Of a stretch of DNA of 64,000 nucleotides, positions 4,670 to 63,778 are shown one piece after another. A model generated the notes under the pieces. That model made no database searches and was not told where the DNA came from. It was given only the letters and a program-made list of their open reading frames with translations. Position numbers and translations under genes: made by a program. Source of the stretch: Desulfobacterales bacterium. GTDB lineage: Bacteria > Desulfobacterota > Desulfobacteria > Desulfobacterales > JALSRD01. The stretch spans positions 9,410 through 73,409 of the forward strand of contig JALSRD010000006.1 of the NCBI GenBank assembly GCA_026984935.1. Reading direction: 5' to 3'. Every line of letters starts with the position of its first letter. Position 1 is the stretch's first letter.

Positions 4670-4714
4670 TTCGAATCCGCGCCTGGTCCGGCGTGCGGCA
4701 AACGGTTGAAGTCC

Positions 4715-5374
4715 ATGTTTACGGGAATCATAGAAGGCTTCGGAACGCTGATGCGCCTGCGGCCCGCGGACGGGGGCCTGCGCATGGTCGTGCGTGCGGA
4801 TTTTGACCTGGACGGCAGCCGCATCGGAGACAGCATCTGCGTAAACGGCGCCTGCCTGACGGCCGTGGAAATCGCGGGCCGGACCTTTACGGTGGATGTC
4901 TCTCCCGAAACACTGTCGAAGTCGACGTTCAGGCGGGTGGTCGCCGGTGAGATCGTCAACCTGGAACGGGCCTTGCGCATGGGCGGCCGCATCGACGGCC
5001 ACCTGGTATCAGGACACCTGGACGGTACCGGCACCGTGGCCGGCATACAGGCCGCCGGCAACGCGCGCATTTTTCAATTTCGTGCGCCGGAGGCCATTAC
5101 GCGCTATATGATTCAAAAGGGTTCCGTGGCGGTTGACGGCATCAGCCTGACCGTCAACGCCGTAAACCGCCTGGATTTTGCCGTCAGTGTCATTCCGCAC
5201 ACGGCGCAGGCGACGACGCTGGGACATAAGAAGGCCGGCGACAGCGTCAACCTGGAAGTCGACATGATCGGCAAATACGTCGAACGCTTCATGGCGCAAT
5301 GCGGCCGGGCCACGGCTCAAACGCCGCCGGCCGGCGCCGTCAACCGGGAGTTTCTGGCGCGCCACGGCTTTTGA
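4715..5374 (+). CDS. ribE: Riboflavin synthase (alpha chain)
   Basis: MFTGII N-terminus, GDSICVNGACLT, VNLERA, GHLVSGH, KGSVAVDGISLT. Confidence 0.96.
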   Translation: MFTGIIEGFGTLMRLRPADGGLRMVVRADFDLDGSRIGDSICVNGACLTAVEIAGRTFTVDVSPETLSKSTFRRVVAGEIVNLERALRMGGRIDGHLVSGHLDGTGTVAGIQAAGNARIFQFRAPEAITRYMIQKGSVAVDGISLTVNAVNRLDFAVSVIPHTAQATTLGHKKAGDSVNLEVDMIGKYVERFMAQCGRATAQTPPAGAVNREFLARHGF

Positions 5375-5462
5375 AGCGGGCAGCACCGCAAAGCGTGTAC
5401 GTTTTTAACCGGCGGCTCGAAGCGGCCGTCGTTTTGGGGCAACAGGAGAGTTTTGCAAAATC

Positions 5463-6677
5463 ATGCCAATTATATCCATTGAAGAAGCCATCCGGCAGAT
5501 CAAGTCCGGCCGCATGGTCATTCTGGTCGATGATGAAGACCGCGAAAACGAAGGCGATCTGACCATTGCCGCCCAGTTCGTCACGCCGGAGGTGATCAAT
5601 TTCATGGCCAAGTACGGCCGGGGGCTGATCTGCCTGGCCCTGACCGCTGAAAAGGTGGATTCCCTGGCCCTGCCGCCCATGGTGGAGCACAACACCTGCC
5701 GCTTTTCCACGGGTTTCACGGTGTCCATCGAGGCCCGCAGCGGTGTCACCACCGGTATCTCCGCCGCCGACCGCGCCACCACCATTCAGACCGCCATCGC
5801 CGATGATGCCAAGCCCGAAGACCTGGTGCGGCCGGGCCACGTGTTCCCGCTGCGGGCGGTCAACGGCGGCGTGACCGTGCGGACCGGCCAGACCGAGGGA
5901 TCGGTGGACCTGGCGCGCCTGGCCGGGCTCAAGCCGGCCGCCGTGATCTGCGAGATCATGGACGAGGACGGCACCATGGCGCGCATGCCCTCGCTGGAAA
6001 AGTTCAGTGAAAAACACGACATCGGCATCTGCACCATCGCCGATCTGATTGCCTACCGCATGCGCACCGAATCGTTTGTGCACCGGATCGTGGAAACCGT
6101 GATTCCCACGGCGCACGCCGGGGAATTCAAAATCATCCTCTACGAAAACGACATGGACAGTTATCAGCACATCGCACTGGTGAAGGGTGCAATCGACCCG
6201 GATCAGCCGATTCTGGTGCGTGTGCACTCCGAGTGTCTCACCGGTGACATTTTCGGCTCCATGCGCTGCGACTGCGGTGACCAGCTGCATACCGCCATGA
6301 AGATGATGGATGCAGAAGGAGCCGGTGTGCTGCTCTACATTCGCCAGGAGGGCCGCGGCATCGGTCTGGCCAACAAGCTCAAGGCCTACTGCCTGCAGGA
6401 TCAGGGCCTGGACACCGTGGAGGCCAATGTTAAACTGGGCTTCAAGCCGGACATGCGCAACTACGGCATCGGTGCTCAGGTGCTGGTGGACCTGGGAGTC
6501 AAGAAGATGCGCCTGATCACCAACAACCCCAAGAAAATGGTGGGCCTGCAGGGTTATGGTCTCAGCATCGTGGAACAGGTGCCCATTCAGATCGAACCCA
6601 ATGAGTTCAACCGCTGTTACCTGGAGTGCAAGCAACTCAAGATGGGGCACCTGCTGAATCTGGACGCCAAGCCCTGA
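5463..6677 (+). CDS. ribBA: Bifunctional DHBP synthase / GTP cyclohydrolase II
   Basis: [50 protein letters not shown]. Confidence 0.97.
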
Positions 6678-6724
6678 GACGGCGCTGGGGAGCGGAAATC
6701 GCCAAAATGGAAGGAAAGTCGAAG

Positions 6725-7198
6725 ATGCCCAAAATAATTGAAGGCAAACTGCTGGCCAAAAACAAGCGCTTTGCGGTTATCGCCAGCCGTTTCAACGATT
6801 TTATTACCGAGAAACTGGTCGATGGAGCGTTGGATGCGCTGCTGCGCTCCGGTGCCGCTGAGAAGGACATCGACATTATCAAGGTGCCGGGAGCTTTTGA
6901 GATTCCGCTGGTGGCCAAGAAAGTGGCGCAAACGCACGCCCATCACGCCGTGATCTGCCTGGGGGCCGTCATCCGCGGTGCGACGCCGCATTTCGACTAC
7001 GTCAGCGCCGAAGTTTCCAAGGGCATCGCCGCTGTGGGCCTGGAAGCGGAAGTGCCGGTAATTTTCGGAATTTTAACCACCGACAGCATCGAACAGGCCA
7101 TCGAACGCGCTGGTACCAAGTCCGGCAACAAAGGGTGGAGCGCCGCCATCAGCGCCGTGGAGATGGCCAACCTGCTCGAGGTGCTGGAACCATCCTGA
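6725..7198 (+). CDS. ribH: 6,7-dimethyl-8-ribityllumazine synthase
   Basis: [39 protein letters not shown]. Confidence 0.97.
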
Positions 7199-7200
7199 TC

Positions 7201-7821
7201 ATGGGCAGTCGACGCCAAGCACGGGAGCTGGCCATGCAGGCCTTATTCTATATGGATGCGGACGGCGGCGACTGGCGGGAGGAACTCGCCCGCTTTCGTG
7301 ACTGTTTCTGCCCGCACAAAAAAGCGCTGCCCTTTTTTATGCAGCTCGTCGAGGGAGTCGTTGCCGCCCGCACCCGGATCGATCACCTCATCGAAGGCTG
7401 CTCCAGCAACTGGAAGATCGGGCGCATGTCGGGGGTCGACCGCAATATCATGCGTGTTGCGGTCTACGAACTGCTCTATTGCGGAGATATTCCATCCAAG
7501 GTTTCCATCAACGAGGCCATCGATATCGGCAAGAAATACGGCACCGAAGATTCAGGCGCTTTTATAAACGGCATCCTGGACAGTATCCGGGCGGCCATGG
7601 ACAGCGGTCAAATCGACCCTGCGGCCGAGCCGGCCACGCATGAGGACGAGGTCCGGGAAGCCGCCGGGCCAAAGACGCCCCCTGCCGGCGTAAAAGCCCC
7701 GCCAGACGAACCCCGGGCCGCAAGCAGGCCGGACGAAGTGGAAAAACCCGCCGTGCAGCGGTCGGTGGCTCTGTCGCCGAGGATCAGGAAGCGGCCTGCA
7801 AACCGCAATAAGGCGTCCTAA
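7201..7821 (+). CDS. nusB: Transcription antitermination factor NusB with C-terminal low-complexity extension
   Basis: RRQARELAMQALF, DRNIMR, INEAIDIGKKYG, FINGILD; follows ribH. Confidence 0.93.
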   Translation: MGSRRQARELAMQALFYMDADGGDWREELARFRDCFCPHKKALPFFMQLVEGVVAARTRIDHLIEGCSSNWKIGRMSGVDRNIMRVAVYELLYCGDIPSKVSINEAIDIGKKYGTEDSGAFINGILDSIRAAMDSGQIDPAAEPATHEDEVREAAGPKTPPAGVKAPPDEPRAASRPDEVEKPAVQRSVALSPRIRKRPANRNKAS

Positions 7822-7851
7822 TTGATTAATCAAAGCAAGGAGAAAAGCATC

Positions 7852-9228
7852 ATGGAAGTCCGTAAAGTTCTGTTGAGCGAAGACGAAATGCCGCGCCAGT
7901 GGTACAATATCCTGGCGGACATCAAGATGAATCCGCCCCTAGGGCCCGATGGGCAGCCGGTTAAACCGGAGATGCTGGCGCCGGTCTTTCCCATGAACCT
8001 CATCGAACAGGAGGTTTCCACCGAACGCTGGATCGACATACCGGAAGGGATTTTGCAGATCCTGAAAATATGGCGCCCCTCTCCCCTGGTACGCGCGCTT
8101 TTTCTGGAAAAGGCTCTGGATACACCGGCCAGGATTTATTATAAAAACGAAGGCGTCAGCCCCCCCGGAAGCCACAAACCCAACACCGCCGTTGCCCAGG
8201 CCTATTACAACAAAGAGTTCGGCATCAAAAAAATCACCACCGAAACCGGTGCCGGACAGTGGGGCAGCGCCCTGTCTTTTGCCTGCTGCCAGTTCGGGAT
8301 CGAATGCAAGGTCTTCATGGTGCGCGTCAGCTTCGACCAGAAACCCTACCGCAAATCCATGATGGAAGCCTGGGGTGGACACTGTGTGGCCAGCCCTTCC
8401 ACGGAAACCGAGGCCGGGCGCCAGGCGCTGGCCAAAGATCCCGAGACACCCGGCAGCCTCGGCATCGCTATCAGTGAAGCCATCGAGGCGGCTGTTTCCG
8501 ACAAAAGCGGCACCACGCGCTACTCTTTGGGCAGCGTGCTGAACCACGTGCTGCTGCACCAGACCATTATCGGGCTGGAAGCCAAGAAACAGTTGGAAAA
8601 GATCGGTGAATACCCGGATGTGGTCATCGGTTGTGCCGGCGGCGGCAGCAACTTCGCCGGGCTGGCCTTCCCCTTTGTGCTCGACAAGATCAACGGCCGC
8701 GACCTTGAGATTTACCCCGTCGAGCCGGCGGCCTGCCCGACCATGACCCGGGCGCCTTTCGTCTACGATCATGGCGATACGGCCCGCTATACGCCGCTGT
8801 TGCCCATGCACAGCCTGGGGCATGCCTTTGTGCCGCCGCCTTTTCACGCCGGGGGATTGCGCTATCATGGCATGGCACCAACTGTTAGTCAGCTGGTCAC
8901 CGAGGGGATCATCTCACCCAAGGCCGTGCGCCAGCTGGAGGCCTACAAGGCCGGTGTGCAATTCGCCCGTACCGAAGGGGTGATCCCGGCGCCCGAAACC
9001 ACCCACGCGCTGGCCTATGTGGCCCAAGAGGCCCGCAAGGCCAAAGAAGAAGGCAGGGAAAAGGTTATCCTGGTCAATTTCAGCGGGCACGGGCTGCTGG
9101 ATTTTGCCGGCTACGACAAATATTTCAGCGGCAAGCTGGACAACTATGCACTGTCCGATGAGCAGCTGGCTGAGGCGGAGAGCGCTTTTGCCGATTTTCC
9201 CAAACCCCAGCACTTGAAAAGCCGCTGA
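7852..9228 (+). CDS. trpB2: TrpB-like PLP enzyme (TrpB2, stand-alone tryptophan synthase beta)
   Basis: [52 protein letters not shown]. Confidence 0.92.
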
Positions 9229-9244
9229 AAAGGCGACCGCTGAT

Positions 9245-9523
9245 ATGGATGTAAGCAAAGACAGATACCGCCGGCGCTGCCCGAAGCTCGGCGGCCCGGT
9301 CGCTTTTTCCTACTGCCGGAGCAGCGGAGCGTCGGAACTGCCCTGCCACAAAATCATGGACTGCTGGTGGGAAGTTTTCGACATCCATGCGTTTTTAAAA
9401 CTAAACTATGCGCCGGAGCAGCTGCAAGCCTTTGCCCGGCGCAGCATACCGGAACCCAAGATCAGCAGCCTGGTCGACCTGATTGCAAAAGCCCGGCGCA
9501 GCAGCGGAACGGATGACGTCTGA
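9245..9523 (+). CDS. Small hypothetical protein with four Cys (CPKLG...C...PC...DCWW)
   Basis: 92-aa ORF filling the gap between trpB2 and the MBL gene on the same strand; protein-like composition. Confidence 0.7.
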   Translation: MDVSKDRYRRRCPKLGGPVAFSYCRSSGASELPCHKIMDCWWEVFDIHAFLKLNYAPEQLQAFARRSIPEPKISSLVDLIAKARRSSGTDDV

Positions 9524-9596
9524 CCATGCGGGACCCGACCCGCTTTCTCAGGGCGCGGCGGTTCCCGCAGTGCATGAGCCGAAGAGGAGATTTCCA

Positions 9597-10223
9597 TTGA
9601 TCATTAAAAAGTTATCCGTGGGGCCGCTGATGGCCAACTGTTTCATCGTGGGATGCAAAGAAACCGGAGAAGCTGCAGTGATAGACCCGGGAGGTGAAGC
9701 CGACCGGATCCTGATGGCGCTGGCGGAATCCAAACTGACTGTAAAATACATCCTCAATACCCACGGGCACTTCGATCACGTGGGTGCCAACGCCCGCCTG
9801 AAGCAGGCTACCGGGGCGCAGCTGCTGATCCACCGTTTGGATGCCCCCATGCTGGACCAGGTGCTGGCGGCGGCCTCCACCTTCGGGCTTGCCGCCGAAA
9901 ATTCACCTGCTCCCGACCGCACCATAGAAGAGGGCGACACGGTCTCGTTCGGCAGGCTCACGTTCGACGTGATCCACACGCCCGGCCATACACCGGGGGG
10001 CGTGTCATTTCACAGTGACGGGCATGTTTTCGTTGGTGACACCCTCTTTGCGGGCTCCATCGGCCGTACGGATTTTCCCGGCGGCGATTACGCAACGCTG
10101 ATCGCCAGCATCCAGCAGAAGCTCTTTCGACTGGACGATGCGGTCACGGTCTACAATGGCCACGGACCGGAAACCACCATCGGCGTTGAGAAGCGCACCA
10201 ATCCCTTTGCGCGGATTGTGTAA
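9597..10223 (+). CDS. MBL-fold metallo-hydrolase (glyoxalase II-like)
   Basis: THGHFDHVG, TPGHTPG, GDTLF, GRTDFPGG, GHG; TTG start at 9597 after GAGGAG. Confidence 0.92.
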   Translation: MIIKKLSVGPLMANCFIVGCKETGEAAVIDPGGEADRILMALAESKLTVKYILNTHGHFDHVGANARLKQATGAQLLIHRLDAPMLDQVLAAASTFGLAAENSPAPDRTIEEGDTVSFGRLTFDVIHTPGHTPGGVSFHSDGHVFVGDTLFAGSIGRTDFPGGDYATLIASIQQKLFRLDDAVTVYNGHGPETTIGVEKRTNPFARIV

Positions 10224-10287
10224 TGCAAGGCGGCATGTGATTCAGGACGGCTGGTCAACGGCAGCGATCTGTCTGCCTGGTTCGCAA

Positions 10288-10507
10288 GTCGGGTTTCAGG
10301 TGTCAAAACGGGGGTGCAGGCGCGCGTGCCGGGCTGCCCGGACACGGGAAAAAGGCCAACCGCTGGCAGGGGCGTAATGCACGGTGGTTGCTTTGCGGTT
10401 TGAAATTCGATATTGGCGGAAATCAAACCACGCAGGCCTAATTTCCGGGAAATGTCGAACAATGATCCCGGCACCTGATTGCCAAACGTCAGCCGCTGAA
10501 ACCCGAC
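10288..10507. repeat. 220-bp intergenic element bounded by a perfect 12-bp inverted repeat, with internal hairpins
   Basis: GTCGGGTTTCAG (10288-10299) / CTGAAACCCGAC (10496-10507); inner stems near 10326-10345, 10394-10434, 10445-10471. Confidence 0.5.
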
Positions 10508-10716
10508 ACCCGGCCCACCCTTTCGTTCCCCGTTTCAGCCAAGCGCTAACTTTTTTTAAGCCGACTGCCGGCTTTTCCCGACGCCTGCCGCGCGGCAGTC
10601 CCTCAACGCCCTACAGCGCCCTCGCGCTCCCCATTTCTGCCAGCTACCGACTGGTACGTTGCCGACACCCCGCGTCCATCATAAAGCCGCGGCTTCGATG
10701 CACATCCCCGGCATGG

Positions 10717-25708: not shown

Positions 25709-27763
25709 GTGCCGGCAGCGGCAAATTGCAGCGCGGTAGCGCGATGGGAGTTTGAACGACACGTGGAACAGAACGTCAGGTCATTGCTGCCTTCCAGAGA
25801 GCAGGTCGAAAGTGTACTGGGCCGGCGGGTGAATGAGCTGCCCCCTTTCCCCCTGGTCGCGCTGAAGCTGCTGGAAATCACCCGTGACGACCGTAAGTCA
25901 TCCGCCGATATCGCCAGGGTGGTCGAGGCCGACCCCTCCATCGCCGCCAAGACGCTGCGGATTGTCAATTCGGCGGCATACGGCGCACTGCGCCAGATCT
26001 CCTCCATCAAGCATGCGGTGGTACTGCTGGGGGTGCTTGAGATTCGCGCCATTGCGCTGGCCGTCACGTTGTTTGAAAATATCGTGCGGCCCGGACACGG
26101 TGCTGCATTTGACCGTGTTTTTTTCTGGAAGCACTCGATCTGCATGGCGGCGCTTTGCCGGGCCATGGCCCAGGAACTGCGCTTTCCGGATCCCGAGGAA
26201 GCTTACGTCGCCGGTTTGCTGCATGACATCGGCAAGGTGATTATCGATTCCTATGGCAAGGTGCGCTACGGTGCCTTCATTGCCGCCGCCCAAGATCACA
26301 ACGGCGCTCTGGTCGATCAGGAGGACCGCCTGATCGGCCTGCGCCACGACGATGCCGGCGCCTATTTCTGTGATGCCTGGCAGATGCCCGAACGCCTGGT
26401 GCGCGCTATTTTGCTGCACCACCGGCGTTTCGGCCATCTCAAGCTCAACCAGGAAGATGCCACGCTGGTATCCGTGGTGGCGCTGTCCGATTTTATCACC
26501 TGGAACCAGGGTGTCGGGTCGGTCAACACGCCGCGCCAGCCAGTGCTGAGCCCGGAAGTGGCCTCCCACGTACGGCTGGATCAGCTGGATCTTCAGAGCC
26601 TGATGGCCCGTATGGACCGGGAAATGCGGAGTACGGCGGATTATTACGGTTTCGGCTTCCCGTCTTCGGAAAACTTCCGTGAGAGTCTGCTGCGGGCCAA
26701 CATCGACCTGGGCCAGAAAAACGCACGCTATTTTCAGCTGCACGGGAACCTGAAAAAGGAGCTGGAGACCTTTTCACGCCTCAAAGAGAGTATCACCCGG
26801 CCGCATCGCAGCCTGGACCCCAAAGCCATTTTATCCGGCACCCTGGAAACCATTCAGCAGAGTTTTGACTTCGACCGTGTTTTTGCCATGAAAGTGGACC
26901 CGGTCCACCGCCACCTGACGATCGTCCAGGCAATGGACCGCACGAACCTGGATGTCGATCTGGAGCGCCTGCGGATACGGCTGGATTCGTCCGCCAGCGG
27001 ATTTATCGACTGCCTGCGCAGCCACGTCCCCATATTGATCAGCGGCCGTACACCGGACGAGGTCCGGGCGCTGGAGTCGTTAAAAGTCACTGAGCTGGGG
27101 GTGGTTCCCGTTGCCAGCAACAATAAGATCGTCGGTATTATCGGTGTGGACAATGCGGCTTCACAGGATCCGCTGCAGCTGTCCGACCTGTCCGCCGTGG
27201 CCATCGTCACCAACGAACTGGGTATTGCGCTGGCAAACGCCAAAACCGTCGAGGAGATCAAAACCCGCGCCAGTCGCGACGGGCTGACCAACGTGTACAA
27301 CCGGGCATCCATCGACACCTTTCTTAAGGAGGCCTTCAAGGCTGCGCAAAGCGGTGAAACCCGCCTGTCGCTGGCCATGATCGACGTGGACCATTTCAAG
27401 CGTTTCAATGACAGCTTCGGCCACCTGGCCGGGGACAGCATTCTCAAGCTGGTGGCCGGGACGCTGACTAAATTTTCGCGATCCACCCAGATCGTGGGAC
27501 GCTACGGCGGCGAGGAGTTTTTGTGCGTGTTAAACGGCACCGATCTCGAGGCGGCGCTCAATTACGGCGAACGCATGCGCCGCAAAGTAGAGGATCTGGG
27601 CCATCTGCTGATCAAACGCTTTCCGGGTTACCAACTGAGCATCAGTGTGGGTGTGGCGGCCTACGAACCCGAAGTTAAAAGCCCCGCAGCGCTGATTGAC
27701 CGCGCCGACCGTGCCATGTATCAGGCCAAACAGGGTGGGCGTAACCGGGTGATGCAGGCCTGA
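25709..27763 (+). CDS. HDOD-GAF-GGDEF diguanylate cyclase
   Basis: HDOD (LPPFP, DPSIAAKTLRIVNS, GLLHDIGK), GAF-like middle, DGLT, DVDHFK, ND..GH..GD, RYGGEEF; start uncertain. Confidence 0.9.
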   Translation: MPAAANCSAVARWEFERHVEQNVRSLLPSREQVESVLGRRVNELPPFPLVALKLLEITRDDRKSSADIARVVEADPSIAAKTLRIVNSAAYGALRQISSIKHAVVLLGVLEIRAIALAVTLFENIVRPGHGAAFDRVFFWKHSICMAALCRAMAQELRFPDPEEAYVAGLLHDIGKVIIDSYGKVRYGAFIAAAQDHNGALVDQEDRLIGLRHDDAGAYFCDAWQMPERLVRAILLHHRRFGHLKLNQEDATLVSVVALSDFITWNQGVGSVNTPRQPVLSPEVASHVRLDQLDLQSLMARMDREMRSTADYYGFGFPSSENFRESLLRANIDLGQKNARYFQLHGNLKKELETFSRLKESITRPHRSLDPKAILSGTLETIQQSFDFDRVFAMKVDPVHRHLTIVQAMDRTNLDVDLERLRIRLDSSASGFIDCLRSHVPILISGRTPDEVRALESLKVTELGVVPVASNNKIVGIIGVDNAASQDPLQLSDLSAVAIVTNELGIALANAKTVEEIKTRASRDGLTNVYNRASIDTFLKEAFKAAQSGETRLSLAMIDVDHFKRFNDSFGHLAGDSILKLVAGTLTKFSRSTQIVGRYGGEEFLCVLNGTDLEAALNYGERMRRKVEDLGHLLIKRFPGYQLSISVGVAAYEPEVKSPAALIDRADRAMYQAKQGGRNRVMQA

Positions 27764-41978: not shown

Positions 41979-44258
41979 ATGGGCCGACCGAAAGCCATCT
42001 TTCTTTTGTTTGTCGTCGTTTCCCTTCTCGCCACCAGCTGCTCTTCGGATGAGGAGAAAAGGGTCTCATACCTCAAGAAGGGGCAGCAGTATTTCCAGAA
42101 GGGGGAGTATAAGAGTGCAGTGCTGGAGTTCAAAAATGCCATTCAGATTGACCCGCAGTATGCGGATGCCTATGCCGGCCTGGCCGAAACTTTTCTCAAA
42201 CTGGGCAATGCCCGGGGTGCTTTCCAGGCGTATTCCCAGCTGGCCAAGCTAAAACCCCAGGATGTCGATGCGCAACTCAAACTGGCCACTTTTTACATGC
42301 TGGGCAGAAAACTGGATGAGGCCAAAAAACGGGTGGACCTGGTGCTGGCCAAACAGCCGGACAACATCGAGGCCCTCTACCTGCTCGCCGGAATCCAGAG
42401 CCTGGGGAAAAACCTGTACGCATCGGCCTCGGTTTTCAGGAAGATCATCGACCTTGACAGCAAGCAGACGCGCGCCTACCTGGGACTGGCCCGGGTGCTG
42501 ATGCGGCAGGGCAAGCTCCAGGAGGCCGAGAAAAACCTGAAGCAGGCCATTTCCCTGAAACCGGACGACATCCAAGCCCATCTGGCGCTGTTTGGCTTTT
42601 ACGTCAGCACGAAAGCTTTTGCGAACGCTGAAAGAGAGATTCGGCAGACGATTGCGGCCCATCCTGAAAATGTCGACCTCTACCTGGTTCTGGGTAATTT
42701 TTACTTTCGCCGGAAAAAACCGGCGGCCGCTGAAAAAGCCTATCTGACGGCTGTGGATAAGGGGGCCAAGACGGTCAAACCCTATATGGTGGCAGCGGGA
42801 TTTTACGAAGCCAGCCATCAAAAAGACAAGGCCCTGGCCATGTACCGCAAGGCCCTGGCGCTTGAGCCCGCAAACGTGCGGATTAAAAATACCATTGCAC
42901 GGCATTACTTCCGAAACCGTGAAATGGCGCCGGCCACCAGGATCGTCGACGAGATTCTGAAAAAGCGCCCCAATTATTTCCCGACCCGCATGCTGAAAGG
43001 CGAAATTGCCGTTGTTCAGAAAAAATTTGACGCGGCCATCGAAATTTTCAACCAACTGATCAAGGAAGAACCCAATTCCTCCCGGGCGTATTATTTCAAA
43101 GGGGTCGCCTACCTCGGCAAGCACCAGATACGGCTTGCCAAAAACGCCCTGGCCAAGGCCATTGAGCTCAACCCCGACCATGCCAAGGCCCGGCTGCTGA
43201 TGGCCGATATTTATCTGCGGGAACATGATTTCGAACTGGCGGCCAAAGCATGCCGTAAGATCCTGGAAAAATTTCCGCATATTTACCGTGCGCAGCTGAT
43301 TCTGGGCGATGCACTCATGTACCAGAAAAAAGTCGGACAGGCCGCGCAGGTGTTCGAGCGTTTGATCAAAGAAAAACCGGACAATCCCGCAGGCTATTAC
43401 CGATTGGGGCGCCTGCAGCAGATCGAGAAAAAATACGATCTGGCTCTCAAGAGCTTTGAAAAAGCGCTTTCGCTGAACCCCCGGCTCATGGATGTTTTCA
43501 GCAGCGTTGTGCTGCTGCAGGCTTCGCGTGGAAAATTCGAAGATGCCCTTGAGCGTTGCGACCGTCAGCTGGCGGTCGTCAAGAATTCATCGGCGGCCAA
43601 AGCCATTGTCTACACGCTCAAGGGGAGTCTCTTTCTGGCCAGGCACCAAAGAGATGCGGCGGAGGAAAATTTTAAAAAAGCCATCGCTGTCAATCCCAAT
43701 TACCTGCGGCCTTATTACCTCCTGGCGAGAATCTACCTGGCTGAAAAGAAACAGGACCAGGCGATTTCACAGTACGCAGCGGTACTGGCCAAAAACCCGA
43801 AACAGGTGGCCCCCCATATGCTGTTGGGGACCATCTATGACATGCAGAAGCGCTTCGGCCTGTCCGAGAAGCACTACCGGCAGGCCCTGGAGCTCAATCC
43901 CGATTTTGCACCGGCGGCCAACAATCTGGCCTTTCTGCTGGCCCAGAAGAACGAGAAGATTGAAGAGGCCCTCGAGCTGGCCCAGAGGGCCAAGGAGAAA
44001 CTGCCGGAAGATCCCAGCATCATGGACACCCTGGGGTGGGTCTATTACAAAAAAGGGCTATATGACAGCGCCATCGACGAATTTAAAGACAGCCTGGAGA
44101 AACTTCCTGAAAACCCGACGGTCAGGTATCATCTCGGTCTGGCGTATTACAAGAAAGGGCAAAAGGCAAAGGCCAGAACCGAGCTTCAAAAAGCACTGCA
44201 CCTCGACAGAAATTTTGACGGCGCTGATGAAGCCCGCAAAATACTCGCCGCCCTGTAG
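41979..44258 (+). CDS. Long TPR-repeat lipoprotein (PrsT / EPS-export-scaffold-like)
   Basis: Signal peptide ending LATSC, many tandem TPR units, C-terminal AANNLA...DTLGWVYY...YHLG. Confidence 0.88.
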   Translation: MGRPKAIFLLFVVVSLLATSCSSDEEKRVSYLKKGQQYFQKGEYKSAVLEFKNAIQIDPQYADAYAGLAETFLKLGNARGAFQAYSQLAKLKPQDVDAQLKLATFYMLGRKLDEAKKRVDLVLAKQPDNIEALYLLAGIQSLGKNLYASASVFRKIIDLDSKQTRAYLGLARVLMRQGKLQEAEKNLKQAISLKPDDIQAHLALFGFYVSTKAFANAEREIRQTIAAHPENVDLYLVLGNFYFRRKKPAAAEKAYLTAVDKGAKTVKPYMVAAGFYEASHQKDKALAMYRKALALEPANVRIKNTIARHYFRNREMAPATRIVDEILKKRPNYFPTRMLKGEIAVVQKKFDAAIEIFNQLIKEEPNSSRAYYFKGVAYLGKHQIRLAKNALAKAIELNPDHAKARLLMADIYLREHDFELAAKACRKILEKFPHIYRAQLILGDALMYQKKVGQAAQVFERLIKEKPDNPAGYYRLGRLQQIEKKYDLALKSFEKALSLNPRLMDVFSSVVLLQASRGKFEDALERCDRQLAVVKNSSAAKAIVYTLKGSLFLARHQRDAAEENFKKAIAVNPNYLRPYYLLARIYLAEKKQDQAISQYAAVLAKNPKQVAPHMLLGTIYDMQKRFGLSEKHYRQALELNPDFAPAANNLAFLLAQKNEKIEEALELAQRAKEKLPEDPSIMDTLGWVYYKKGLYDSAIDEFKDSLEKLPENPTVRYHLGLAYYKKGQKAKARTELQKALHLDRNFDGADEARKILAAL

Positions 44259-44313: not shown

Positions 44314-45462
44314 ATGAAATATTTGTCGTTTAAAATTCTGCTGAGCTGTATCCTGCTGCCCCCGCTGCTCTATGTTTTTTCGGTGCAGGGACTGGAAACC
44401 TGGTTGCAGCGCAAGTATACACGCGAAGTCGAGCAGGCCTGCACCGGCGATACCGCCCCGCTGTTTAGCGGCAATCTGCGCCTGAGAGACGCGGTCAGCG
44501 CTAATATCGACCGCTTTCTGCGCAACCGGCGGCTCACGGCATGGGGCGTCCGGATCGGTGTGACGGTAACGACCGCGGGCGGGCTGCTGCTCTACCCGCC
44601 GGTCATCGAGGAGCCGCATGCGCCGCTGGTCTCAGACCCCATGAAAATCGCCGCTGAAAACTACCGCCTGATGCAGGCGGGCCTGCGGGTGAAGGTACAG
44701 GTGACACTGGCGTACAATACGCTGCTGACCAACGCCATTTTGGCCTTTTATATCCTCTTCTTCGGGCTGCTGCTCTATGTTTACTACCGCAAGGGCGCCC
44801 ACCGTGTCCGGCAGGAGGCACTCGAAAAAAATCGCGAAATCGAACGCCTGAAGTCCTACGAGGAAAAGCGCAGCCGGGGGTTGAAAACCCTGCAGACCGA
44901 GCGTCAGCGGCTGTCAGCGGAACTGGAAGGGCTACGCCGGAAAGTAGAGCGGGAAAAAAACCGCGCCAGTCGCAACGAGGACCAGATGATCGAGGAAATC
45001 GTCGCGCTGGAAAAGAAAATTGCGGAAAACATTGCGCTGCAGAACACCCAACAGCGTGAAATCGAGAGCCTGACGGCAAAAATCCAGAGCTATGAAAAGC
45101 GCCGCAAACGCGGGGGAAAACATAAAGCCAAGGCCTCCGATGCGGCGGCCAGACGCTTCAAGGCGCTCTATAAAAATCTGACCATCGGGCGGCGTGCAGT
45201 GGAAGGGTTTGCGGAACTCACCGATGATATGCAGATCAAAGCCGAGGAGATTATCCATCAGCTGAACGAGGAACCGGACAGCGTTCCCATCAAACGCAAG
45301 GTGTTTGGCAAAAAGGGCATGGGAACCTTTTTTGAGGTGCTTTTTGCCTATAACGGCCGGCTGTATTTCCGGAAAGGCAAGGACCAGGGAGTGGAAATAC
45401 TGGCCATTGGCACCAAGAACTCACAGGCCCGGGATTTGGAATTTTTGCGCAACGTGCCGTGA
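44314..45462 (+). CDS. Membrane protein: 2 TM helices, long coiled coil, C-terminal RelE/HigB-like domain
   Basis: Hydrophobic stretches near aa 6-25 and 135-157, charged heptad region, then ...GRLYFRK...ILAIGTKNSQARDL; the CDS is secure, the fold call is by eye. Confidence 0.75.
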   Translation: MKYLSFKILLSCILLPPLLYVFSVQGLETWLQRKYTREVEQACTGDTAPLFSGNLRLRDAVSANIDRFLRNRRLTAWGVRIGVTVTTAGGLLLYPPVIEEPHAPLVSDPMKIAAENYRLMQAGLRVKVQVTLAYNTLLTNAILAFYILFFGLLLYVYYRKGAHRVRQEALEKNREIERLKSYEEKRSRGLKTLQTERQRLSAELEGLRRKVEREKNRASRNEDQMIEEIVALEKKIAENIALQNTQQREIESLTAKIQSYEKRRKRGGKHKAKASDAAARRFKALYKNLTIGRRAVEGFAELTDDMQIKAEEIIHQLNEEPDSVPIKRKVFGKKGMGTFFEVLFAYNGRLYFRKGKDQGVEILAIGTKNSQARDLEFLRNVP

Positions 45463-45482
45463 TCTACGGCCGGCGACATGTC

Positions 45483-47354
45483 ATGTACTGCAAATACTAT
45501 CAACTCAAAGAAAAACCCTTCCAGATTACCACGGACCCCAAGTTCCTGTGGCTGGGGGAAAAGCACAAAGAAGCCTTGTCCATACTCAAGTACGGCATCC
45601 TGGACAACAAGTGGTTTCTGCTTTTGACCGGTGATGTGGGAACCGGCAAAACCACCCTGATCAATGCCCTTTTGAGAAGCCTCGATGAACGGGTGATCGT
45701 GGCCGCAGTCCCCGATCCCGGTCTGGAAGAACTCGACCTGTTCAATTTCATCGCCGATGCTTTTCATATGGACAGGATCTTTTCCTCCAAGGGCGAGTTC
45801 CTGATCCATTTCAAGCGTTTCCTGAATGCCGCCCATGACAGCCATAAAAAAGTCCTGCTGATCATCGACGAGGCCCAACAGCTCACGCAGCAGCGTTTGG
45901 AAACCATTCGCCTGCTCTCCAACATTGAAAGACAAGAAACCAAGCTGATCAACATCTTTTTTGTCGGTCAGAACGAGTTTAACGACATTCTGCGCCGTAC
46001 GGAAAACCGGGCGCTGCGCCAGCGGATTACCATCAACTACAACATCGCGCCTCTCGCGCCAGCGGAAACGGCGGCCTATATTGCTCACCGGCTGAAAGTC
46101 GCCCAGGCGGCAAAATCCATGTTTACCCCCGAAGCCGTTCGCCGCATTGCCATCCATTCCGGGGGGTATCCCCGCCTGATTAACGTCCTGTGTGACTATG
46201 CGCTGGTAACCGGATACGTCAAGGGCATCCATCAGATTGGCCCCGACATTATATCCGAATGTGCCCGGGAGCTGAAAATTCCGGGTCGCAGTCCGGCTCC
46301 ACAACAAGCACTCCCGGACGCACCTGCGCCGACTCCGCGTCCACAATCCGGCCCGTCGCCTTCGGGCCGACGGCCGCCGGCATCCGCCCCGGTGCCGTCT
46401 GCTGCCGCACATGCAGCCGTGATGCCTGCAAAAGCGGGGCACCCCGCCTGGCTGTGGGGCCTGCTGGGCATCTTGCTGGCCGCCGGCGTACTCCTTATGG
46501 GATATTATCTGGGATGGCGCCTGCCAAACCAAAAAGCGCCGATGATTGCCAAGGCCCCTGCCGTACGGACCCCAAAAACCGCTGCAACCGGCGAAATGCA
46601 GGTGTCCACGCAGCTGCCCGAAGTCCATCCGCCCGTGGCGGCGGTTCCTGCAGCCCAGCGGGGCGCTGCCGCCACCCATCTGGAAGGCAGCCAGGCGACG
46701 GGCGGCGGCGGACGTGAGAGCGGGCAAACGCCTTCTGCGAACAGAGAAAATCCGGCCGGCAGTACAAGCGCTGGCCGGCGGGCGGCCACTTCTGCTGAGC
46801 CCGCCGGTTCGAATGCAGCGGCGGGCATGCCAGGGGGGCAGGAAATTTCACGCAACCAGCCTGCTGACAGCGGCGGGCAGCGCAGTGCGCCGCCCCGGGC
46901 GCAATCTGCAACGCCCGTGGGCCCGGTTTTACACAGGGATGCTGCTCTTGCGGTGGACACGGATCTGGAAAAGCGTATTCAGGAACTTGCGCGCAGAAAA
47001 AAAATGGTCGTGTACTTTGGATACGACTCCAACGCGATGAAAGACACGACGCTCAGATCGCTGGATACGCTTTCGGCGTTTATGCAGCGCTACCCGCGGG
47101 CAGAGATCACCATCAGGGGCTACACGGATTCATCAGGGGTATACAGTTACAATCAAAAGCTGTCTGAATTCAGGGCCAACATGGTCAAAAGCTATCTGGT
47201 GGGCAAGGGCACAGATCCAGCCAGGATCAAAACCCGCGGCCTCGGGCCGGCAAATCCGGTGCAGTCCAATCAGTCCGAAAAAACCCGCAGATTCAACCGC
47301 CGTGTAGAAATCGAGATTTTTTTTACCCCCCGCCACAAGGCGACAGCCGGGTGA
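45483..47354 (+). CDS. ExeA/GspA-family AAA ATPase fused via Pro/Ala linker and TM helix to OmpA-like peptidoglycan-binding domain
   Basis: PFQITTDPKFL, TGDVGTGKTT, IIDEAQ, LRQRI, SGGYPRLINVLCD; C-terminal FGYDS, GYTD, NQKLSEFRA, NRRVEI. Confidence 0.9.
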   Translation: MYCKYYQLKEKPFQITTDPKFLWLGEKHKEALSILKYGILDNKWFLLLTGDVGTGKTTLINALLRSLDERVIVAAVPDPGLEELDLFNFIADAFHMDRIFSSKGEFLIHFKRFLNAAHDSHKKVLLIIDEAQQLTQQRLETIRLLSNIERQETKLINIFFVGQNEFNDILRRTENRALRQRITINYNIAPLAPAETAAYIAHRLKVAQAAKSMFTPEAVRRIAIHSGGYPRLINVLCDYALVTGYVKGIHQIGPDIISECARELKIPGRSPAPQQALPDAPAPTPRPQSGPSPSGRRPPASAPVPSAAAHAAVMPAKAGHPAWLWGLLGILLAAGVLLMGYYLGWRLPNQKAPMIAKAPAVRTPKTAATGEMQVSTQLPEVHPPVAAVPAAQRGAAATHLEGSQATGGGGRESGQTPSANRENPAGSTSAGRRAATSAEPAGSNAAAGMPGGQEISRNQPADSGGQRSAPPRAQSATPVGPVLHRDAALAVDTDLEKRIQELARRKKMVVYFGYDSNAMKDTTLRSLDTLSAFMQRYPRAEITIRGYTDSSGVYSYNQKLSEFRANMVKSYLVGKGTDPARIKTRGLGPANPVQSNQSEKTRRFNRRVEIEIFFTPRHKATAG

Positions 47355-55551: not shown

Positions 55552-57081
<1,530 letters not shown>

Positions 57082-59756: not shown

Positions 59757-62048
59757 TCAGGCAGCCGCAAACTCCTCGGCCAGCTTTTTGTCAATGACGT
59801 AGATGCACACTTCCTTGGCACCTCGCTGGGAATATTTGTACTTGCTGATCAGGTTGTCGATGAGGAAATTGACATCATCTCTGATGCGTTTGTCGTAGGT
59901 TTTGAAGTCTTCTTGGCCGTAGTCCTTGATGGCGCGCCGGAAGTTTTCGTTTTCCAGGAAAGGATCCAACACTTTTTCCTTGAGGTTGTACACGTAGCGT
60001 TCGTAAAGCGACTGGTAGAGGCGTGTGGCGGTCACGTCCTTTTCTTCAATGATGATTTCCTGAGGCAGCGTTTCTGCTGTGTATTCGCGCTGGGTGTCAC
60101 GCCGGAAAGCGCGGCGCCTTTCTTTGCCGGCCGTCGCGCCCAGCAGCCGGCTTTCCATGCTGTCTAAAAATTCCTCGCTGATTTCAAGCTTTTCACCGGT
60201 AAAACGGCTGGTCTCCACCGATCCGATTTCGAAATTGATGGCAAACAGGTAGTTCCGGATGTCCCTGGAAATCTGCTCTTCGTTGTAGTAGTAAAGGGAT
60301 TCCTTGACTTCCTGCAGGATCGTGTAGTTGTACATGCGCTGCAAAGACTCCAAAAATCCTTCCGGGATGGACCCTTTGTGCTCTCCGATGAATCTTTCGA
60401 AAAAAGTAAAAAGATCGGTCATGTCAATGAGCTTGTCTTCGCGGCTGTAAATGGAGTAGAATTTGTTGAAGATACGGATGGAGTCGCGGCCCGAGATGCC
60501 CCGTTTGCCCTCGTTTTCCGACTCGGCCAGGATCTTGCGCCGCAGTTTGGCGGTCAGCCGCTTACGGTCTTCCTCCGAGAGCCAGCTGGGAATGACGCCG
60601 GTGTAGATTTCCATTTTCAGCAGCAGCAGGTCCTTGTCGCAGTATAGTTGGTACTTGCGGGGTTCCGGAATCCATTCACGCATGGCCACGGAGGCGGGAT
60701 TCAAACGCGAGGAGATGATGACGCGGGCGAAGTTGCGCAGCACGCGCGGCAGGAAGTTTTCCTCGATGTGGCGCCCGAAAATATTGCGGTAGATCTCCAC
60801 CTCGGTTTGGACATCCATGACATAGGGGATGGTGATGGTTTCGATGCGGTCGGAAAAGGATTTGAAAATTTCGACATTGCGCTTGTCTTCGGGATTCATG
60901 ACGGCCAGCAGCAGCGACTTGACATTTTCCTCGATATCCTCGACCTTGTGCACGCCTTCGCTGATGATGTTGTGCAGTTCGACGAAACGCTCCTTGTTGT
61001 GGGATTTGATGTCCATCAGCGCGTAAACGCCATCGTTGGTCTTGGCGTATTCGGAAAAGATGTATTTCACCAGATTGCTGTTGTTTAAGATGGTGTTGAT
61101 GCTGCGCTGCAACATGGGATTGGACATCACGCTCTGGCGCAGCGGGCGGTCGCCAGGATTGAAGACGCTGATACCTTCCCCCAGCCGCCGGTTGAAGGCG
61201 TATGGCCGTACATAGATCATTTTGAAAATTTTACGCGGCTGGTGGAGCCGCGTCAGCAGGGCATCGTACAGTGAACTGCAGATGGTGCAGGGATTGTCCC
61301 GGAAAACCCACTCGTACTCCTTGCTGTCGGAAAGCTGCCACTTGAATTCGTTGTTTTCGAACAGCTGATCGAAGAAATCCCGGCGATAGGCCTTGGGGAT
61401 CATCAGAATCGGGTTGTCGTGGCTGGGACAGGGAATTTCCAGTAAATCACTGAAAAACGGCCCCGCCGGTTCGTCGTCAAAGCCCACCGGCTCTTCCTGC
61501 CCGTTGGCGTCCAGCAGCCTGGCGAGCTTTTGAACCAGCGGGTTGATCTGGCGGCGGCCAAAGGATCCCAGGATATCCCGATCCAGGCGCCAGACCGTTT
61601 CGTAGCGCATGCCGGCTTCAGAGTTGGCGTATTCGGCAAACCTCATCAGCAGGTTGTTTAAAAAGGTGCTTTTGCCGCATCCCGGGGGACCCTCGAAGAC
61701 ATAAATTTTGTTCTGCTGGGCGCTGCGCTCCAGGGATTCAGCCATGTTGATCAAGCGGTTGGCGAAGATGCGGTCGGCGAAAAACGGATGGTCCGCGCCC
61801 TCCACAAACAGCCGGTCGCAGTCGTAGCATACGAAATGGATGGATTCGGGGTCGTCGGGATATTCTTCGGTTCCCGTTCCCACATAGTGTTTGATCATGT
61901 CGTGAAACAGCTGGAAAATGTTGCGGATCAGGGGCTTGGGCTTTTTCACGAGCAGGTCGAGGTAGTCCTCGAAGGGCATGGCGGTGTACTGATCGCGGTT
62001 GCTGATGTCCTGCGTCAGATGCTCCAGAGCCTTTTTGATCTTTTCCAT
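59757..62048 (-). CDS. PrkA/YeaG-family AAA serine protein kinase (divergent, 763 aa)
   Basis: Walker A GPPGCGKST, CPSHDNP, CTIC, SDRI, IPY, GISGRDS and C-terminal YKYS..GA helix typical of PrkA; next to SpoVR. Confidence 0.78.
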   Translation of the reverse strand: MEKIKKALEHLTQDISNRDQYTAMPFEDYLDLLVKKPKPLIRNIFQLFHDMIKHYVGTGTEEYPDDPESIHFVCYDCDRLFVEGADHPFFADRIFANRLINMAESLERSAQQNKIYVFEGPPGCGKSTFLNNLLMRFAEYANSEAGMRYETVWRLDRDILGSFGRRQINPLVQKLARLLDANGQEEPVGFDDEPAGPFFSDLLEIPCPSHDNPILMIPKAYRRDFFDQLFENNEFKWQLSDSKEYEWVFRDNPCTICSSLYDALLTRLHQPRKIFKMIYVRPYAFNRRLGEGISVFNPGDRPLRQSVMSNPMLQRSINTILNNSNLVKYIFSEYAKTNDGVYALMDIKSHNKERFVELHNIISEGVHKVEDIEENVKSLLLAVMNPEDKRNVEIFKSFSDRIETITIPYVMDVQTEVEIYRNIFGRHIEENFLPRVLRNFARVIISSRLNPASVAMREWIPEPRKYQLYCDKDLLLLKMEIYTGVIPSWLSEEDRKRLTAKLRRKILAESENEGKRGISGRDSIRIFNKFYSIYSREDKLIDMTDLFTFFERFIGEHKGSIPEGFLESLQRMYNYTILQEVKESLYYYNEEQISRDIRNYLFAINFEIGSVETSRFTGEKLEISEEFLDSMESRLLGATAGKERRRAFRRDTQREYTAETLPQEIIIEEKDVTATRLYQSLYERYVYNLKEKVLDPFLENENFRRAIKDYGQEDFKTYDKRIRDDVNFLIDNLISKYKYSQRGAKEVCIYVIDKKLAEEFAAA

Positions 62049-62119
62049 GCTGCGCCTTTCCCGGGAAACGCCCCGGGCCTGCCGGTGTGCTCGAACAAGC
62101 CGGCAGGCATTCCCGCCAA

Positions 62120-63778
62120 TCAGAGAGTTTTCTTGCTCAGTTTACGGTCCCTCATGGTGTACCGCACGCGTTGCCAGGTGACGCTGCCCACATTTTCCTG
62201 GGCATCCGTGGCTGCTGTGCCGGCAGGCAAGTCCTTTCCCTCCGGTGCGCCGATACTGACCACCTCGCTGGTTTCCAGGTGCACCGGTGCGCCCCAGAGA
62301 AACTCGATGCCCAGCATGGTGTTGGCGATAAACTCCTGTACCAGCGGCTTTTCCTCGAAACGGTGTACCAGGTAAAGTTCTCCGTCTTGGCCCTGTTCTT
62401 CATCCACCTCGATGACCGGCGGGTGGTAGAGGCTGTCGAGCACCATCTGGCGATAGTCGTCGGCCTTGCGGCTCTTGACGTAGAACTCCCACACCATGCG
62501 GTCGCGGTTGAGGCGGCGACCGGCCACGAAGAGGTTATTGGCGGTGACAAAGTCCTGGTCCACAAAGTTCTTGATGAACAGGAAGTCGCAGAAGTTTTCG
62601 CGGATGCTGAAGATATATGAACGCCCCCTGCCGGTGGCGCGGTCGAAACGCCGGCGCTGGTCCGCATCCAGAATGCGCTGGAATTCGATGGAGAGCCGGC
62701 CCTGATCGGCCATTTGCTCAATGGCATAGAACAGGCGCATGCCCAGGGCGTAAGGATTCAGCCCCACCCGCGGCATGGCGGTGACACTGGCGTTGACGCG
62801 TGCGAAATCGACTTCGTGCCCGTTGATGCGGTTGTCCTGTAGAAAGAGGGTTTCGTGCCAGTAGCTGGCCCAGCCCTCGTTCATGATCTTGGTCCGAATC
62901 TGCGGCTGGAAGAAAAGCGACGTGTTGCGCACCACCTGCAGCACGGTTTGCATCCACTTGTTCTCTTCGCGATTGAGCATTTCGGAATGTTCGAGCAGGT
63001 ACTGCATCAGGTCAGGCATGTGGACGTGACGGGTTTCGCGATTTCTGCGGTAGAGGGCGTCGAATTCCGGGTAGTCGCGGATGATGTCTGCAAAAAAAGT
63101 CTGCTCACCCTGGTCGCCGAACTGCTGCAGGCAGTCGTTGTAGCGCTTGATCTCCTGCACATAACGGGTGGTGGAGACTTTTTTCTCCTGCTGCAGAAAA
63201 ACATCGAAGTAGTAGTTGACGCGGCTGGAAAAGTCGGCCAGCGGTGTGCGGTCCAGGCGGTAGAGTTCGTGGTGAAACCCCACCAGGTTGTCGATGCCGC
63301 GGGCAAATTCGATGATGTAATCCACCCAGCGGCCCTTCTCCGAGCGCAAGGCCGCGATCAGGCGTTTGTCGGCCAGGGCCTGTCCGTTGAAGTCGTAATC
63401 CCAGGTATGGCGGAAAAACAAATTGTTCTGGAAAAAGTCGATGTGTCCCAGCACGTGGTAGAAAATCATCACGTTGAGCCAGTCAGGGTTGTTGTCGTTG
63501 TAAAAGGATACCGCCGGCCGTGTGTTGATCACGGTTTCGAAGGGGTTGCCCGGGTAAAGTTCATACTTGCCCTTGCCCTTGAGGACTTCTACGTCGTGCA
63601 CCCAGTAGTCATACAGTGTCGGGATCATCACCTTGGGGGACAATTCCAGCAGGTCCCGGTTGGAGACGATATACTCCAGGGTTTCGTCTTCGAAACGCAA
63701 TCCGGCATCACGGGCCCGCCGCTTGCAGCCCTGCATAATCCTTTTGGTATGCTGGTCAATCAGTTCCATGAGCGTCAC
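62120..63778 (-). CDS. SpoVR/YcgB family protein
   Basis: FETVINT, HVLGHIDFFQNN, PQIRTKIMNEGWASYWH, NPYALG, LWGAPVHLET; start 63778 or 63769. Confidence 0.9.
   Translation of the reverse strand: MTLMELIDQHTKRIMQGCKRRARDAGLRFEDETLEYIVSNRDLLELSPKVMIPTLYDYWVHDVEVLKGKGKYELYPGNPFETVINTRPAVSFYNDNNPDWLNVMIFYHVLGHIDFFQNNLFFRHTWDYDFNGQALADKRLIAALRSEKGRWVDYIIEFARGIDNLVGFHHELYRLDRTPLADFSSRVNYYFDVFLQQEKKVSTTRYVQEIKRYNDCLQQFGDQGEQTFFADIIRDYPEFDALYRRNRETRHVHMPDLMQYLLEHSEMLNREENKWMQTVLQVVRNTSLFFQPQIRTKIMNEGWASYWHETLFLQDNRINGHEVDFARVNASVTAMPRVGLNPYALGMRLFYAIEQMADQGRLSIEFQRILDADQRRRFDRATGRGRSYIFSIRENFCDFLFIKNFVDQDFVTANNLFVAGRRLNRDRMVWEFYVKSRKADDYRQMVLDSLYHPPVIEVDEEQGQDGELYLVHRFEEKPLVQEFIANTMLGIEFLWGAPVHLETSEVVSIGAPEGKDLPAGTAATDAQENVGSVTWQRVRYTMRDRKLSKKTL

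Follow-up and report, generated by a model that had tools for sequence, protein, structure and literature searches.

What would a toxin fold do at the end of a membrane protein that has no antitoxin? To our knowledge, domains of the RelE/ParE fold occur almost only as toxins of toxin-antitoxin modules or as effectors of conflict systems such as Cami1. The question is raised by a 64,000-nucleotide (nt) stretch of a Desulfobacterales genome (GenBank assembly GCA_026984935.1, contig JALSRD010000006.1, positions 9,410 to 73,409 of the forward strand), which we call the window and in which the gene coordinates below are counted. An open reading frame (ORF) of 382 amino acids (aa) at 44314..45462 on the plus strand encodes a protein that, according to its full-length model, has two transmembrane (TM) helices, a cytoplasmic stalk and a RelE-fold head; its translation is identical to the sequence quoted in an initial annotation of the window. 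We refer to it as the target protein. Our analysis suggests that it represents a family of domesticated, membrane-tethered, antitoxin-less RelE/HigB-fold proteins of predicted function, tied to PrsT, a lipoprotein with tetratricopeptide repeats (TPR).

The fold of the C-terminal domain was examined on predicted structures. Folded alone, the domain (residues 272-382) yielded a model with a predicted local distance difference test (pLDDT) score of 91.5 and a predicted template modelling (pTM) score of 0.84, in which the elements follow the order beta-alpha-alpha-beta-beta-beta-beta-alpha. DSSP assigned strands to positions 18-20, 57-60, 68-73, 77-83 and 89-96 of this isolated model, and helices to positions 22-29, 33-48 and 97-108. 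The core of the RelE/ParE superfamily, that is, a beta-alpha-alpha-beta-beta-beta(-alpha) arrangement in which two helices pack against an antiparallel sheet, is present in the model. Foldseek retrieved four matches from the PDB at E <= 1e-3, all of which were RelE (best match 4fxe_E, E = 1e-4). In a wider structural search, the first 25 matches were titled RelE, YafQ, YoeB, HigB, ParE or other toxin-antitoxin proteins, the exceptions being Cami1 (10th) and Txp40 (18th); the Z-scores ran from 9.4 down to 5.8 over these 25 matches and had fallen to 4.6 by the 27th. Residues 284-382 of the full-length model gave the same list of structural matches as the isolated domain. Because the searches with the two models agree, we regard the RelE/ParE-superfamily fold predicted for the domain as confirmed, and the structural comparison that the initial annotation had proposed as a check bears out its assignment to this superfamily. 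Of the 48 columns that are invariant over the whole protein, 28 fall in this domain.

The full-length AlphaFold2 model, generated from an alignment of 38 homologs (mean pLDDT 81.4), consists of a helix at residues 6-43 that includes TM1, a small alpha/beta domain at residues 48-132, an unbroken helix at residues 137-285 that comprises TM2 and the stalk, and the compact C-terminal domain. The order of parts read earlier from the translation (TM helix, loop, TM helix, coiled coil, C-terminal domain) is reproduced in the model, with a stalk of ~125 aa in place of the ~110 aa claimed. TM1 (aa 5-25; 44326..44388, like all parts of the gene on the plus strand) and TM2 (aa 137-159; 44722..44790) have mean Kyte-Doolittle hydropathies of +1.89 and +1.63, respectively, in the 38-homolog alignment. 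TM2 is followed by the basic stretch RKGAHRVR, and lysine plus arginine average 4.3 within the 16 residues after TM2 over the same alignment, in which the net charges are -3.2 for the loop, +6.8 for the stalk and +5.6 for the C-terminal domain. Since these hydropathy and charge values fit the positive-inside rule, we infer an N-in/loop-out/C-in topology, which supports the cytoplasmic placement of the C-terminal domain assumed in the initial annotation. Outside the head, conservation is highest in TM1, where the majority residue accounts on average for a fraction of 0.84 per column and L14, P16 and Y20 are invariant; this speaks for a functional helix rather than a disposable signal peptide.

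The loop domain between the two TM helices (aa 26-135; 44389..44718), a small alpha/beta fold that is probably periplasmic judging from its net charge and the model, comprises helices at residues 48-51, 57-70, 73-77 and 109-122 and strands at residues 79-87, 92-94 and 124-132; 11 of its 110 columns are invariant. Searches with the full-length model returned no structural match specific to residues 26-135, and the ESM Atlas offered no usable lead for the loop or for the C-terminal domain (best score 0.77). The cytoplasmic stalk (aa 160-285; 44791..45168), modelled as a single continuous helix of coiled-coil character, has only weak SMC-type and coiled-coil matches in the NCBIfam, PDB profile and structure searches. 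Within it, residues 221-233 form a polar patch in which E222 and E228 are invariant and N221, I229, L232 and E233 nearly so; on these conserved columns, the patch has the look of a binding site or hinge rather than of plain coiled-coil filler. The head itself (aa 286-382; 45169..45459) bears the conserved residues R328, K329, E341, R349, Y351, K368 and Q371.

We detected 766 homologs of the target at E <= 1e-3 among 8000 candidates scored, and the family comprises 291 clusters at 50% identity, nearly all ~380 aa long and of the same architecture; with so many homologs and clusters, the architecture is far beyond chance. Among 185,579 species genomes, 295 stretches were confirmed to carry the gene, mostly from Desulfobacterales; the best 80 of the 295, almost all labelled Desulfobacterales or relatives, were used for the locus comparisons below. 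Carriers include the cultivable species Desulfosarcina widdelii (L060) and Desulfonema magnum (L015). The target domain was found in 18 of 61 genomes sampled from the order, with one match each in 17 of the 18 and with every match lying inside an open frame of 330-481 aa, and in 4 of 151 genomes sampled from the phylum, two of which fall outside the order, where the gene is thus rare. Gp49 toxins occur in 36 of the same 61 genomes of the order, with up to 10 matches each. The target is present as a single copy in its own genome, which is 99.45% complete and in which no Gp49-family toxin was found. All source names seen among the relatives read 'hypothetical protein' except that of one fragment, whose label is evidently unrelated. 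Taken together, these data describe a chromosomal gene that is kept in single copy, is conserved by vertical descent and has its main range in Desulfobacterales.

As the initial annotation had noted, there is no small ORF beside the target in the window that could encode an antitoxin, and no antitoxin-sized ORF is conserved at the flanks of the loci compared. A search of proteins of 61-195 aa gave 49 matches, 50-73% identical to the target, all of which were fragments of the same family and none a free-standing version of the toxin. The marks of a type II toxin-antitoxin system, namely a small free toxin with an adjacent antitoxin and a patchy, multi-copy, mobile distribution, are therefore not those of the target. 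Being single-copy, located among housekeeping genes and without an antitoxin, the target is not a toxin-antitoxin module.

What accompanies the target instead is an exported TPR protein. The gene upstream (41979..44258, plus strand) encodes a PrsT-type TPR lipoprotein of 759 aa with a lipobox cysteine (Cys21) that is invariant in 29 homologs; the protein scores 406.5 bits against the PrsT model TIGR02917 (cut-off 312.2), and no other match in the genome is of PrsT grade. Upstream and downstream neighbours were each counted on 70 loci with at least 1 kb of sequence on the respective side. A TPR gene on the same strand, ending within 800 nt of the target, lies upstream in 66 of the 70 loci, at gaps of 3-600 nt, so that the TPR protein is a constant partner. 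The four loci lacking it are L022, L067, L071 and L075. In L071 (Desulfotignum) the upstream neighbour is a 632-aa AMIN-domain protein (E = 5.1e-9; 6096-7991 of that stretch) that is not PrsT-like, and L075 (also Desulfotignum) has the same arrangement, with an abutting upstream ORF of 701 aa that is not PrsT-like either. Complex prediction with residues 22-759 of the TPR protein and residues 26-136 of the target, covering the loop, gave scores of 0.30 and 0.01, where a mark of 0.32 is needed for a call either way.

In the portion of Haft et al. (2006, PMC1569441) drawn on here, PrsT is proposed to be the partner of the two-component system PrsK/PrsR in Proteobacteria and to act with a membrane sensor. 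The genome that carries the target holds an EpsH-family exosortase on contig C35 (112.4 bits, cut-off 105.55; 124.8 against a cut-off of 208 on the XrtA-specific model) and three PEP-CTERM ORFs above the cut-off, as opposed to none in control genomes; neither the exosortase nor the PEP-CTERM ORFs are adjacent to the target locus. Across the 61 genomes of the order, 14 hold both target and exosortase, four the target only, eight the exosortase only and 35 neither. In raw genome counts that ignore kinship, an exosortase is accordingly present in 14 of the 18 target-positive genomes versus 8 of the 43 target-negative ones, an enrichment and not a strict match. No PrsK above the cut-off was found in the genome carrying the target. 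The idea that the target replaces PrsK nevertheless gained no support, as four of the seven PrsK-positive genomes in the same sample (15 candidates scored per genome) also hold the target.

As described in the cited portion of PMC9098466, the proposed catalytic pocket of HigB-TAC from Mycobacterium tuberculosis comprises K58, E66, R68, N73, R77, F93, K95, Q98 and K99; R68, R77 and K95 are equated with K54, R61 and R81 of RelE, and the substitutions K58A, R68A, R77A, K95A and K99A each abolish toxicity. We mapped this pocket onto the target by chaining an in-register, 76-column hhalign alignment of the target domain to Gp49 toxins, used for register only, with an alignment of the Gp49 profile to HigB; the Gp49 profile matches the solved HigB toxins 6af3 (6.7e-16) and 7nbu_Y (2.4e-10). 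Conservation was counted over 144 non-redundant sequences of the target domain. By this mapping, E66 corresponds to E341 (conserved in 142 of the 144), R77 to R349 (144), K95-N96 to K368-N369 (144 and 128) and Q98 to Q371 (142), and the segment K327-R328-K329 (131, 143 and 144) falls near K58. Y351 is conserved in 143 sequences. R68 corresponds to position 343, which is not basic; the six commonest residues there are I, V, L, E, G or D, together accounting for 124 sequences. The loss of the arginine of the 'ELR' strand, for which the initial annotation had warned that catalysis might be lost, is thus supported by the alignment, and the caution was justified. K99 falls on the variable position 372, which is followed by lysine or arginine at 373 in 124 sequences. 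As judged from the aligned sequences, the family strictly conserves about half of the HigB-TAC pocket and lacks one of the residues that are essential there. Because active sites vary widely across the RelE/ParE superfamily, cleavage of RNA by the head may still be possible.

The explanation that we put first, at slightly below an even chance, is that the target is a transmembrane transducer coupled to PrsT, with a RelE-like head that acts on ribosomes or mRNA near the membrane, the action on RNA being putative. The target would serve the PrsT-type TPR lipoprotein as a dedicated partner in the inner membrane, and its loop, facing the periplasm, would receive a signal from the lipoprotein or be held by it. 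The stalk, probably a dimeric coiled coil, would carry the state of the loop to the cytoplasmic head, position the head and perhaps gate it. The head could then act on ribosomes or mRNAs being translated close to the membrane, either by cleaving A-site mRNA with the retained E341, R349, K368 and Q371 or by occupying the A site without cleavage. In this way, the status of the envelope, of exopolysaccharide or of PEP-CTERM sorting would be coupled to translation. An antitoxin would not be needed, since tethering and the sensor would restrain the head. That the gene is single-copy, strongly conserved, membrane-tethered and set in a housekeeping envelope context points to domestication of the RelE fold for regulation, and our best hypothesis is one of the possibilities raised in the initial annotation, namely that a domesticated toxin fold links the state of the envelope to translation.

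A narrower form of this explanation, which we consider rather improbable, follows the logic of IRE1 and regulated IRE1-dependent decay (RIDD). The layout of a TM anchor, a coiled coil and an RNase-fold head recalls RNase Y, and the logic recalls IRE1. By this analogy, PrsT would report the state of the envelope or of the exopolysaccharide/PEP-CTERM sorting pathway to the loop, and the stalk would switch a head that cleaves mRNAs on membrane ribosomes, resulting in post-transcriptional feedback on the synthesis of envelope proteins by a domesticated toxin with no antitoxin involved.

A number of observations weigh against an RNA-directed transducer. (i) No family in Pfam or NCBIfam matched the target beyond coiled-coil noise, and the C-terminal domain searched alone hit no Pfam family at E <= 10, hence none of the RelE/ParE/HigB families (PF05016, PF05973, PF05015 and others) above its gathering score. 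When 42 natural domain sequences were scanned singly, PF05973 (Gp49/HigB-like) appeared in two of them (best E = 0.022) and PF05016 (ParE_toxin) in one (E = 0.067). (ii) Profile-profile comparison of the target domain with 22 genuine Gp49 toxins, collected from genomes of the same order, gave a non-significant probability of 0.35% over 16 columns; with the more diverse alignment of 144 domain sequences, the comparison extended to 76 columns in the right register, at P = 0.035 and a probability of 1.5%. Profile searches of the PDB were dominated by coiled-coil proteins over the full-length columns, and those with the domain columns had a best E of 0.26 and nothing relevant. The assignment to a HigB-like subfamily made in the initial annotation is consequently not supported in that form, as there is no significant family match and the comparison, albeit in register, is not significant. 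(iii) The equivalent of R68 (RelE K54) is lost while R68A abolishes the toxicity of HigB-TAC, and K99 has no aligned counterpart but only the neighbouring lysine or arginine at 373; the mapping of residues from HigB-TAC to the target depends on a weak alignment, and the conserved residues of the head could serve protein-protein contacts instead. (iv) The topology is itself deduced from charge and hydropathy, and the association with exosortases is imperfect, with four genomes holding the target only.

The main rival explanation dispenses with RNA altogether, and we consider it unlikely, though a serious competitor. According to this rival, the RelE fold has lost any RNA function and is a head for protein interactions; the target would be the bitopic partner, comparable to ExeB/GspB, of an ExeA/GspA-like ATPase, and together with the TPR lipoprotein the two would form a trans-envelope complex that helps to assemble an exopolysaccharide or PEP-CTERM export machine or to anchor it to peptidoglycan. 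The ATPase gene is located immediately downstream in the window (45459..47354, plus strand) and encodes a 631-aa protein with an ExeA/GspA-like AAA domain (AAA_22, 1.1e-23), a TM helix, a Pro/Ala-rich linker and an OmpA-type peptidoglycan-binding domain (OmpA, 1.9e-17). Its start is ambiguous: the GTG at 45459 overlaps the stop of the target, homologs align only from residue 4-9 onwards, and there is an in-frame ATG at 45483. The two genes hence overlap by GTGA or are separated by 21 nt if the ATG is used, 55 nt separate the TPR gene from the target, and no terminator-like site was found on the plus strand between the three genes, an arrangement that fits one operon. An ExeA-like gene adjoins the target in 25 of the 70 loci, often very tightly (gaps of -4 to 10 nt, including overlapping stop and start, in 13 loci), and three of five searched genomes lacking this adjacency have a 59-62% identical, ortholog-grade copy elsewhere; such unlinked copies lie on stretches L115 and L116. 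These linkages favour a structural complex, as do the loss of the R68 equivalent, the lack of a significant sequence link between the head and nucleases, and the envelope or secretion neighbours at other loci, such as the AMIN-domain protein of L071 and, ~50 nt downstream of the target in L035 (4601-5809), a platform protein of type II secretion or type IV pili (T2SS-F, E = 1.5e-54). On the other hand, 45 of the 70 loci lack the ATPase gene next to the target, the other two of the five searched genomes hold only paralogs of 38-41% identity, and the target has no Pfam homology to GspB/ExeB. Conservation is strongest at positions matching the catalytic and RNA-contact residues of HigB, which a scaffold would not obviously need. 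The same counts divide the three-gene system proposed in the initial annotation: the upstream TPR gene stands as a constant member, whereas the ATPase is a facultative one.

On TIGR03015, the model of the PEP-CTERM-associated ATPase, the ATPase scores 250.7 bits (253.6 when the whole genome was searched) and so falls short of the cut-off of 324.5. Contig C78 of the same genome encodes a paralog that scores 287.9 bits on this model, above the window copy. C78 (93361-94161 and 99867-100397 on the minus strand, 122646-124178 on the plus strand) also holds TPR proteins with partial similarity to PrsT and may be the main exopolysaccharide/PEP-CTERM region of the genome.

Apart from the ExeA-like gene, the genes downstream of the target vary and comprise rpsF-rpsR-DUF2232, a GAF sigma-54 activator, a T2SS-F homolog, a histidine kinase and metabolic genes. 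The gene for ribosomal protein S6 lies 118-592 nt after the target on the same strand in 13 of the 80 loci (L007, at 4294-6204, and L008, L011, L013, L014, L016, L020, L023, L037, L040, L046, L049 and L050), with S18 and DUF2232 next to it in 11; this adjacency is probably clade-specific synteny, though curious beside a gene of RelE fold. In L045, a gene for a GAF and sigma-54 activator (9151-10692) starts ~2-5 nt after the target, and a gene of the same domain make-up is present in the window at 55552..57081 on the minus strand, ~10 kb downstream and in opposite orientation. The rest of the window is of housekeeping character, with genes for ProRS, RelA/SpoT, glycogen phosphorylase, a PFL-like enzyme, Liv transporter components, OFOR, MltG, PrkA and SpoVR. 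The genes for the PrkA-type serine protein kinase and the SpoVR-like protein are adjacent (59757..63778, minus strand), a pairing typical of the conserved stress operon of the yeaG/ycgB type. A further gene at 25709..27763 (plus strand) encodes a 684-aa HDOD, GAF and GGDEF protein with a putative role in cyclic di-GMP signalling.

It is against this background that the other possibility raised in the initial annotation, an envelope-sensing abortive-infection or defence effector whose head is released or activated by phage damage to the envelope and halts translation, appears highly improbable. The gene is single-copy and clade-wide rather than patchy in the order and phylum samples, and keeps its synteny with the genes for nicotinate phosphoribosyltransferase and OFOR in close relatives and with rpsF-rpsR in others, while nothing resembling a mobile element or a defence island was noticed among the annotated ORFs of the window. 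PADLOC, run on the target and its neighbours, gave generic coiled-coil, TPR, MotB and P-loop matches only (E = 1e-3 to 1e-13), those of the target being of coiled-coil type (E = 1.5e-3 to 4.9e-3), and no specific match to a defence system. Lastly, an ordinary type II toxin that happens to carry a membrane anchor, its antitoxin going unrecognised nearby or being supplied in cis, would agree with the RelE/ParE fold and with a helix at residues 273-285 that precedes the core and could in principle mask it (R281 and Y286 are invariant), but we can dismiss it almost entirely, given that neither side of the gene has a small conserved ORF and the downstream genes vary, that the constant neighbour is an exported lipoprotein unable to neutralise a cytoplasmic domain, that the search for small proteins recovered same-family fragments only, and that the genome has no Gp49-family toxin.

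How, then, does a PrsT-coupled transducer compare with systems already described? The nearest known proteins are the ribosome-dependent mRNA interferases of HigB/Gp49 and RelE type (M. tuberculosis HigB-TAC, 7nbu; Streptococcus pneumoniae HigB, 6af3; Methanocaldococcus jannaschii RelE, 3bpq). The target differs from them in that its domain is fused to a membrane-anchored N-terminal part of 285 aa, has no antitoxin and belongs to a single-copy core gene; besides the insignificant profile match and the lost R68/K54 equivalent, the alignment places a deletion of ~3 residues at K99-T-P of HigB. Cami1, a CARF-RelE fusion of type III CRISPR systems (8phb and 8phj, known here by their entry titles), likewise combines a RelE domain with a sensor, and such a sensor-fused RelE domain reportedly can work without an antitoxin. 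Unlike the cytoplasmic CARF domain, the putative sensor of the target is a module of two TM helices with a loop and a long stalk, and its context is that of the envelope and PEP-CTERM proteins, not CRISPR.

ExeA/ExeB (GspA/GspB) is a secretin-assembly pair. The downstream protein shares the ExeA layout (cytoplasmic AAA ATPase, TM helix and periplasmic peptidoglycan-binding domain), which is also that of MshM-type ATPases, and an inner-membrane partner is encoded beside the ATPase in both cases. In contrast to ExeB, however, the target lacks homology to GspB, is predicted to be mostly cytoplasmic and ends in a RelE fold, and its neighbouring ATPase is facultative. The system PrsK/PrsR/PrsT, as far as the cited portion of PMC1569441 describes it, resembles the present one in that the upstream gene passes the PrsT model and the genome holds an exosortase and PEP-CTERM proteins; the membrane protein beside PrsT is here not a histidine kinase. 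YqjD, ElaB and YgaM, described in part of a preprint (bioRxiv 10.1101/2024.08.16.608256) as membrane-anchored, ribosome-inactivating proteins, share with the proposed transducer the idea of a protein that is tethered to the membrane and acts on ribosomes there. Going by that partial description, these are set apart by being C-tail-anchored and by having no RelE fold, periplasmic domain or lipoprotein partner. Full-text literature searches, which cover few subscription journals, returned no description of a protein like the target.

A protein of this kind is unexpected for the toxin-antitoxin field and offers a handle on PrsT, a lipoprotein associated since 2006 with the PEP-CTERM/exosortase system; the target is a concrete candidate for its partner. 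If the head does not act on ribosomes, the family would clearly illustrate how a toxin fold can be taken over as a structural module. If, on the contrary, it does so at the membrane, the family would represent a new bacterial route from the status of the envelope to translation.

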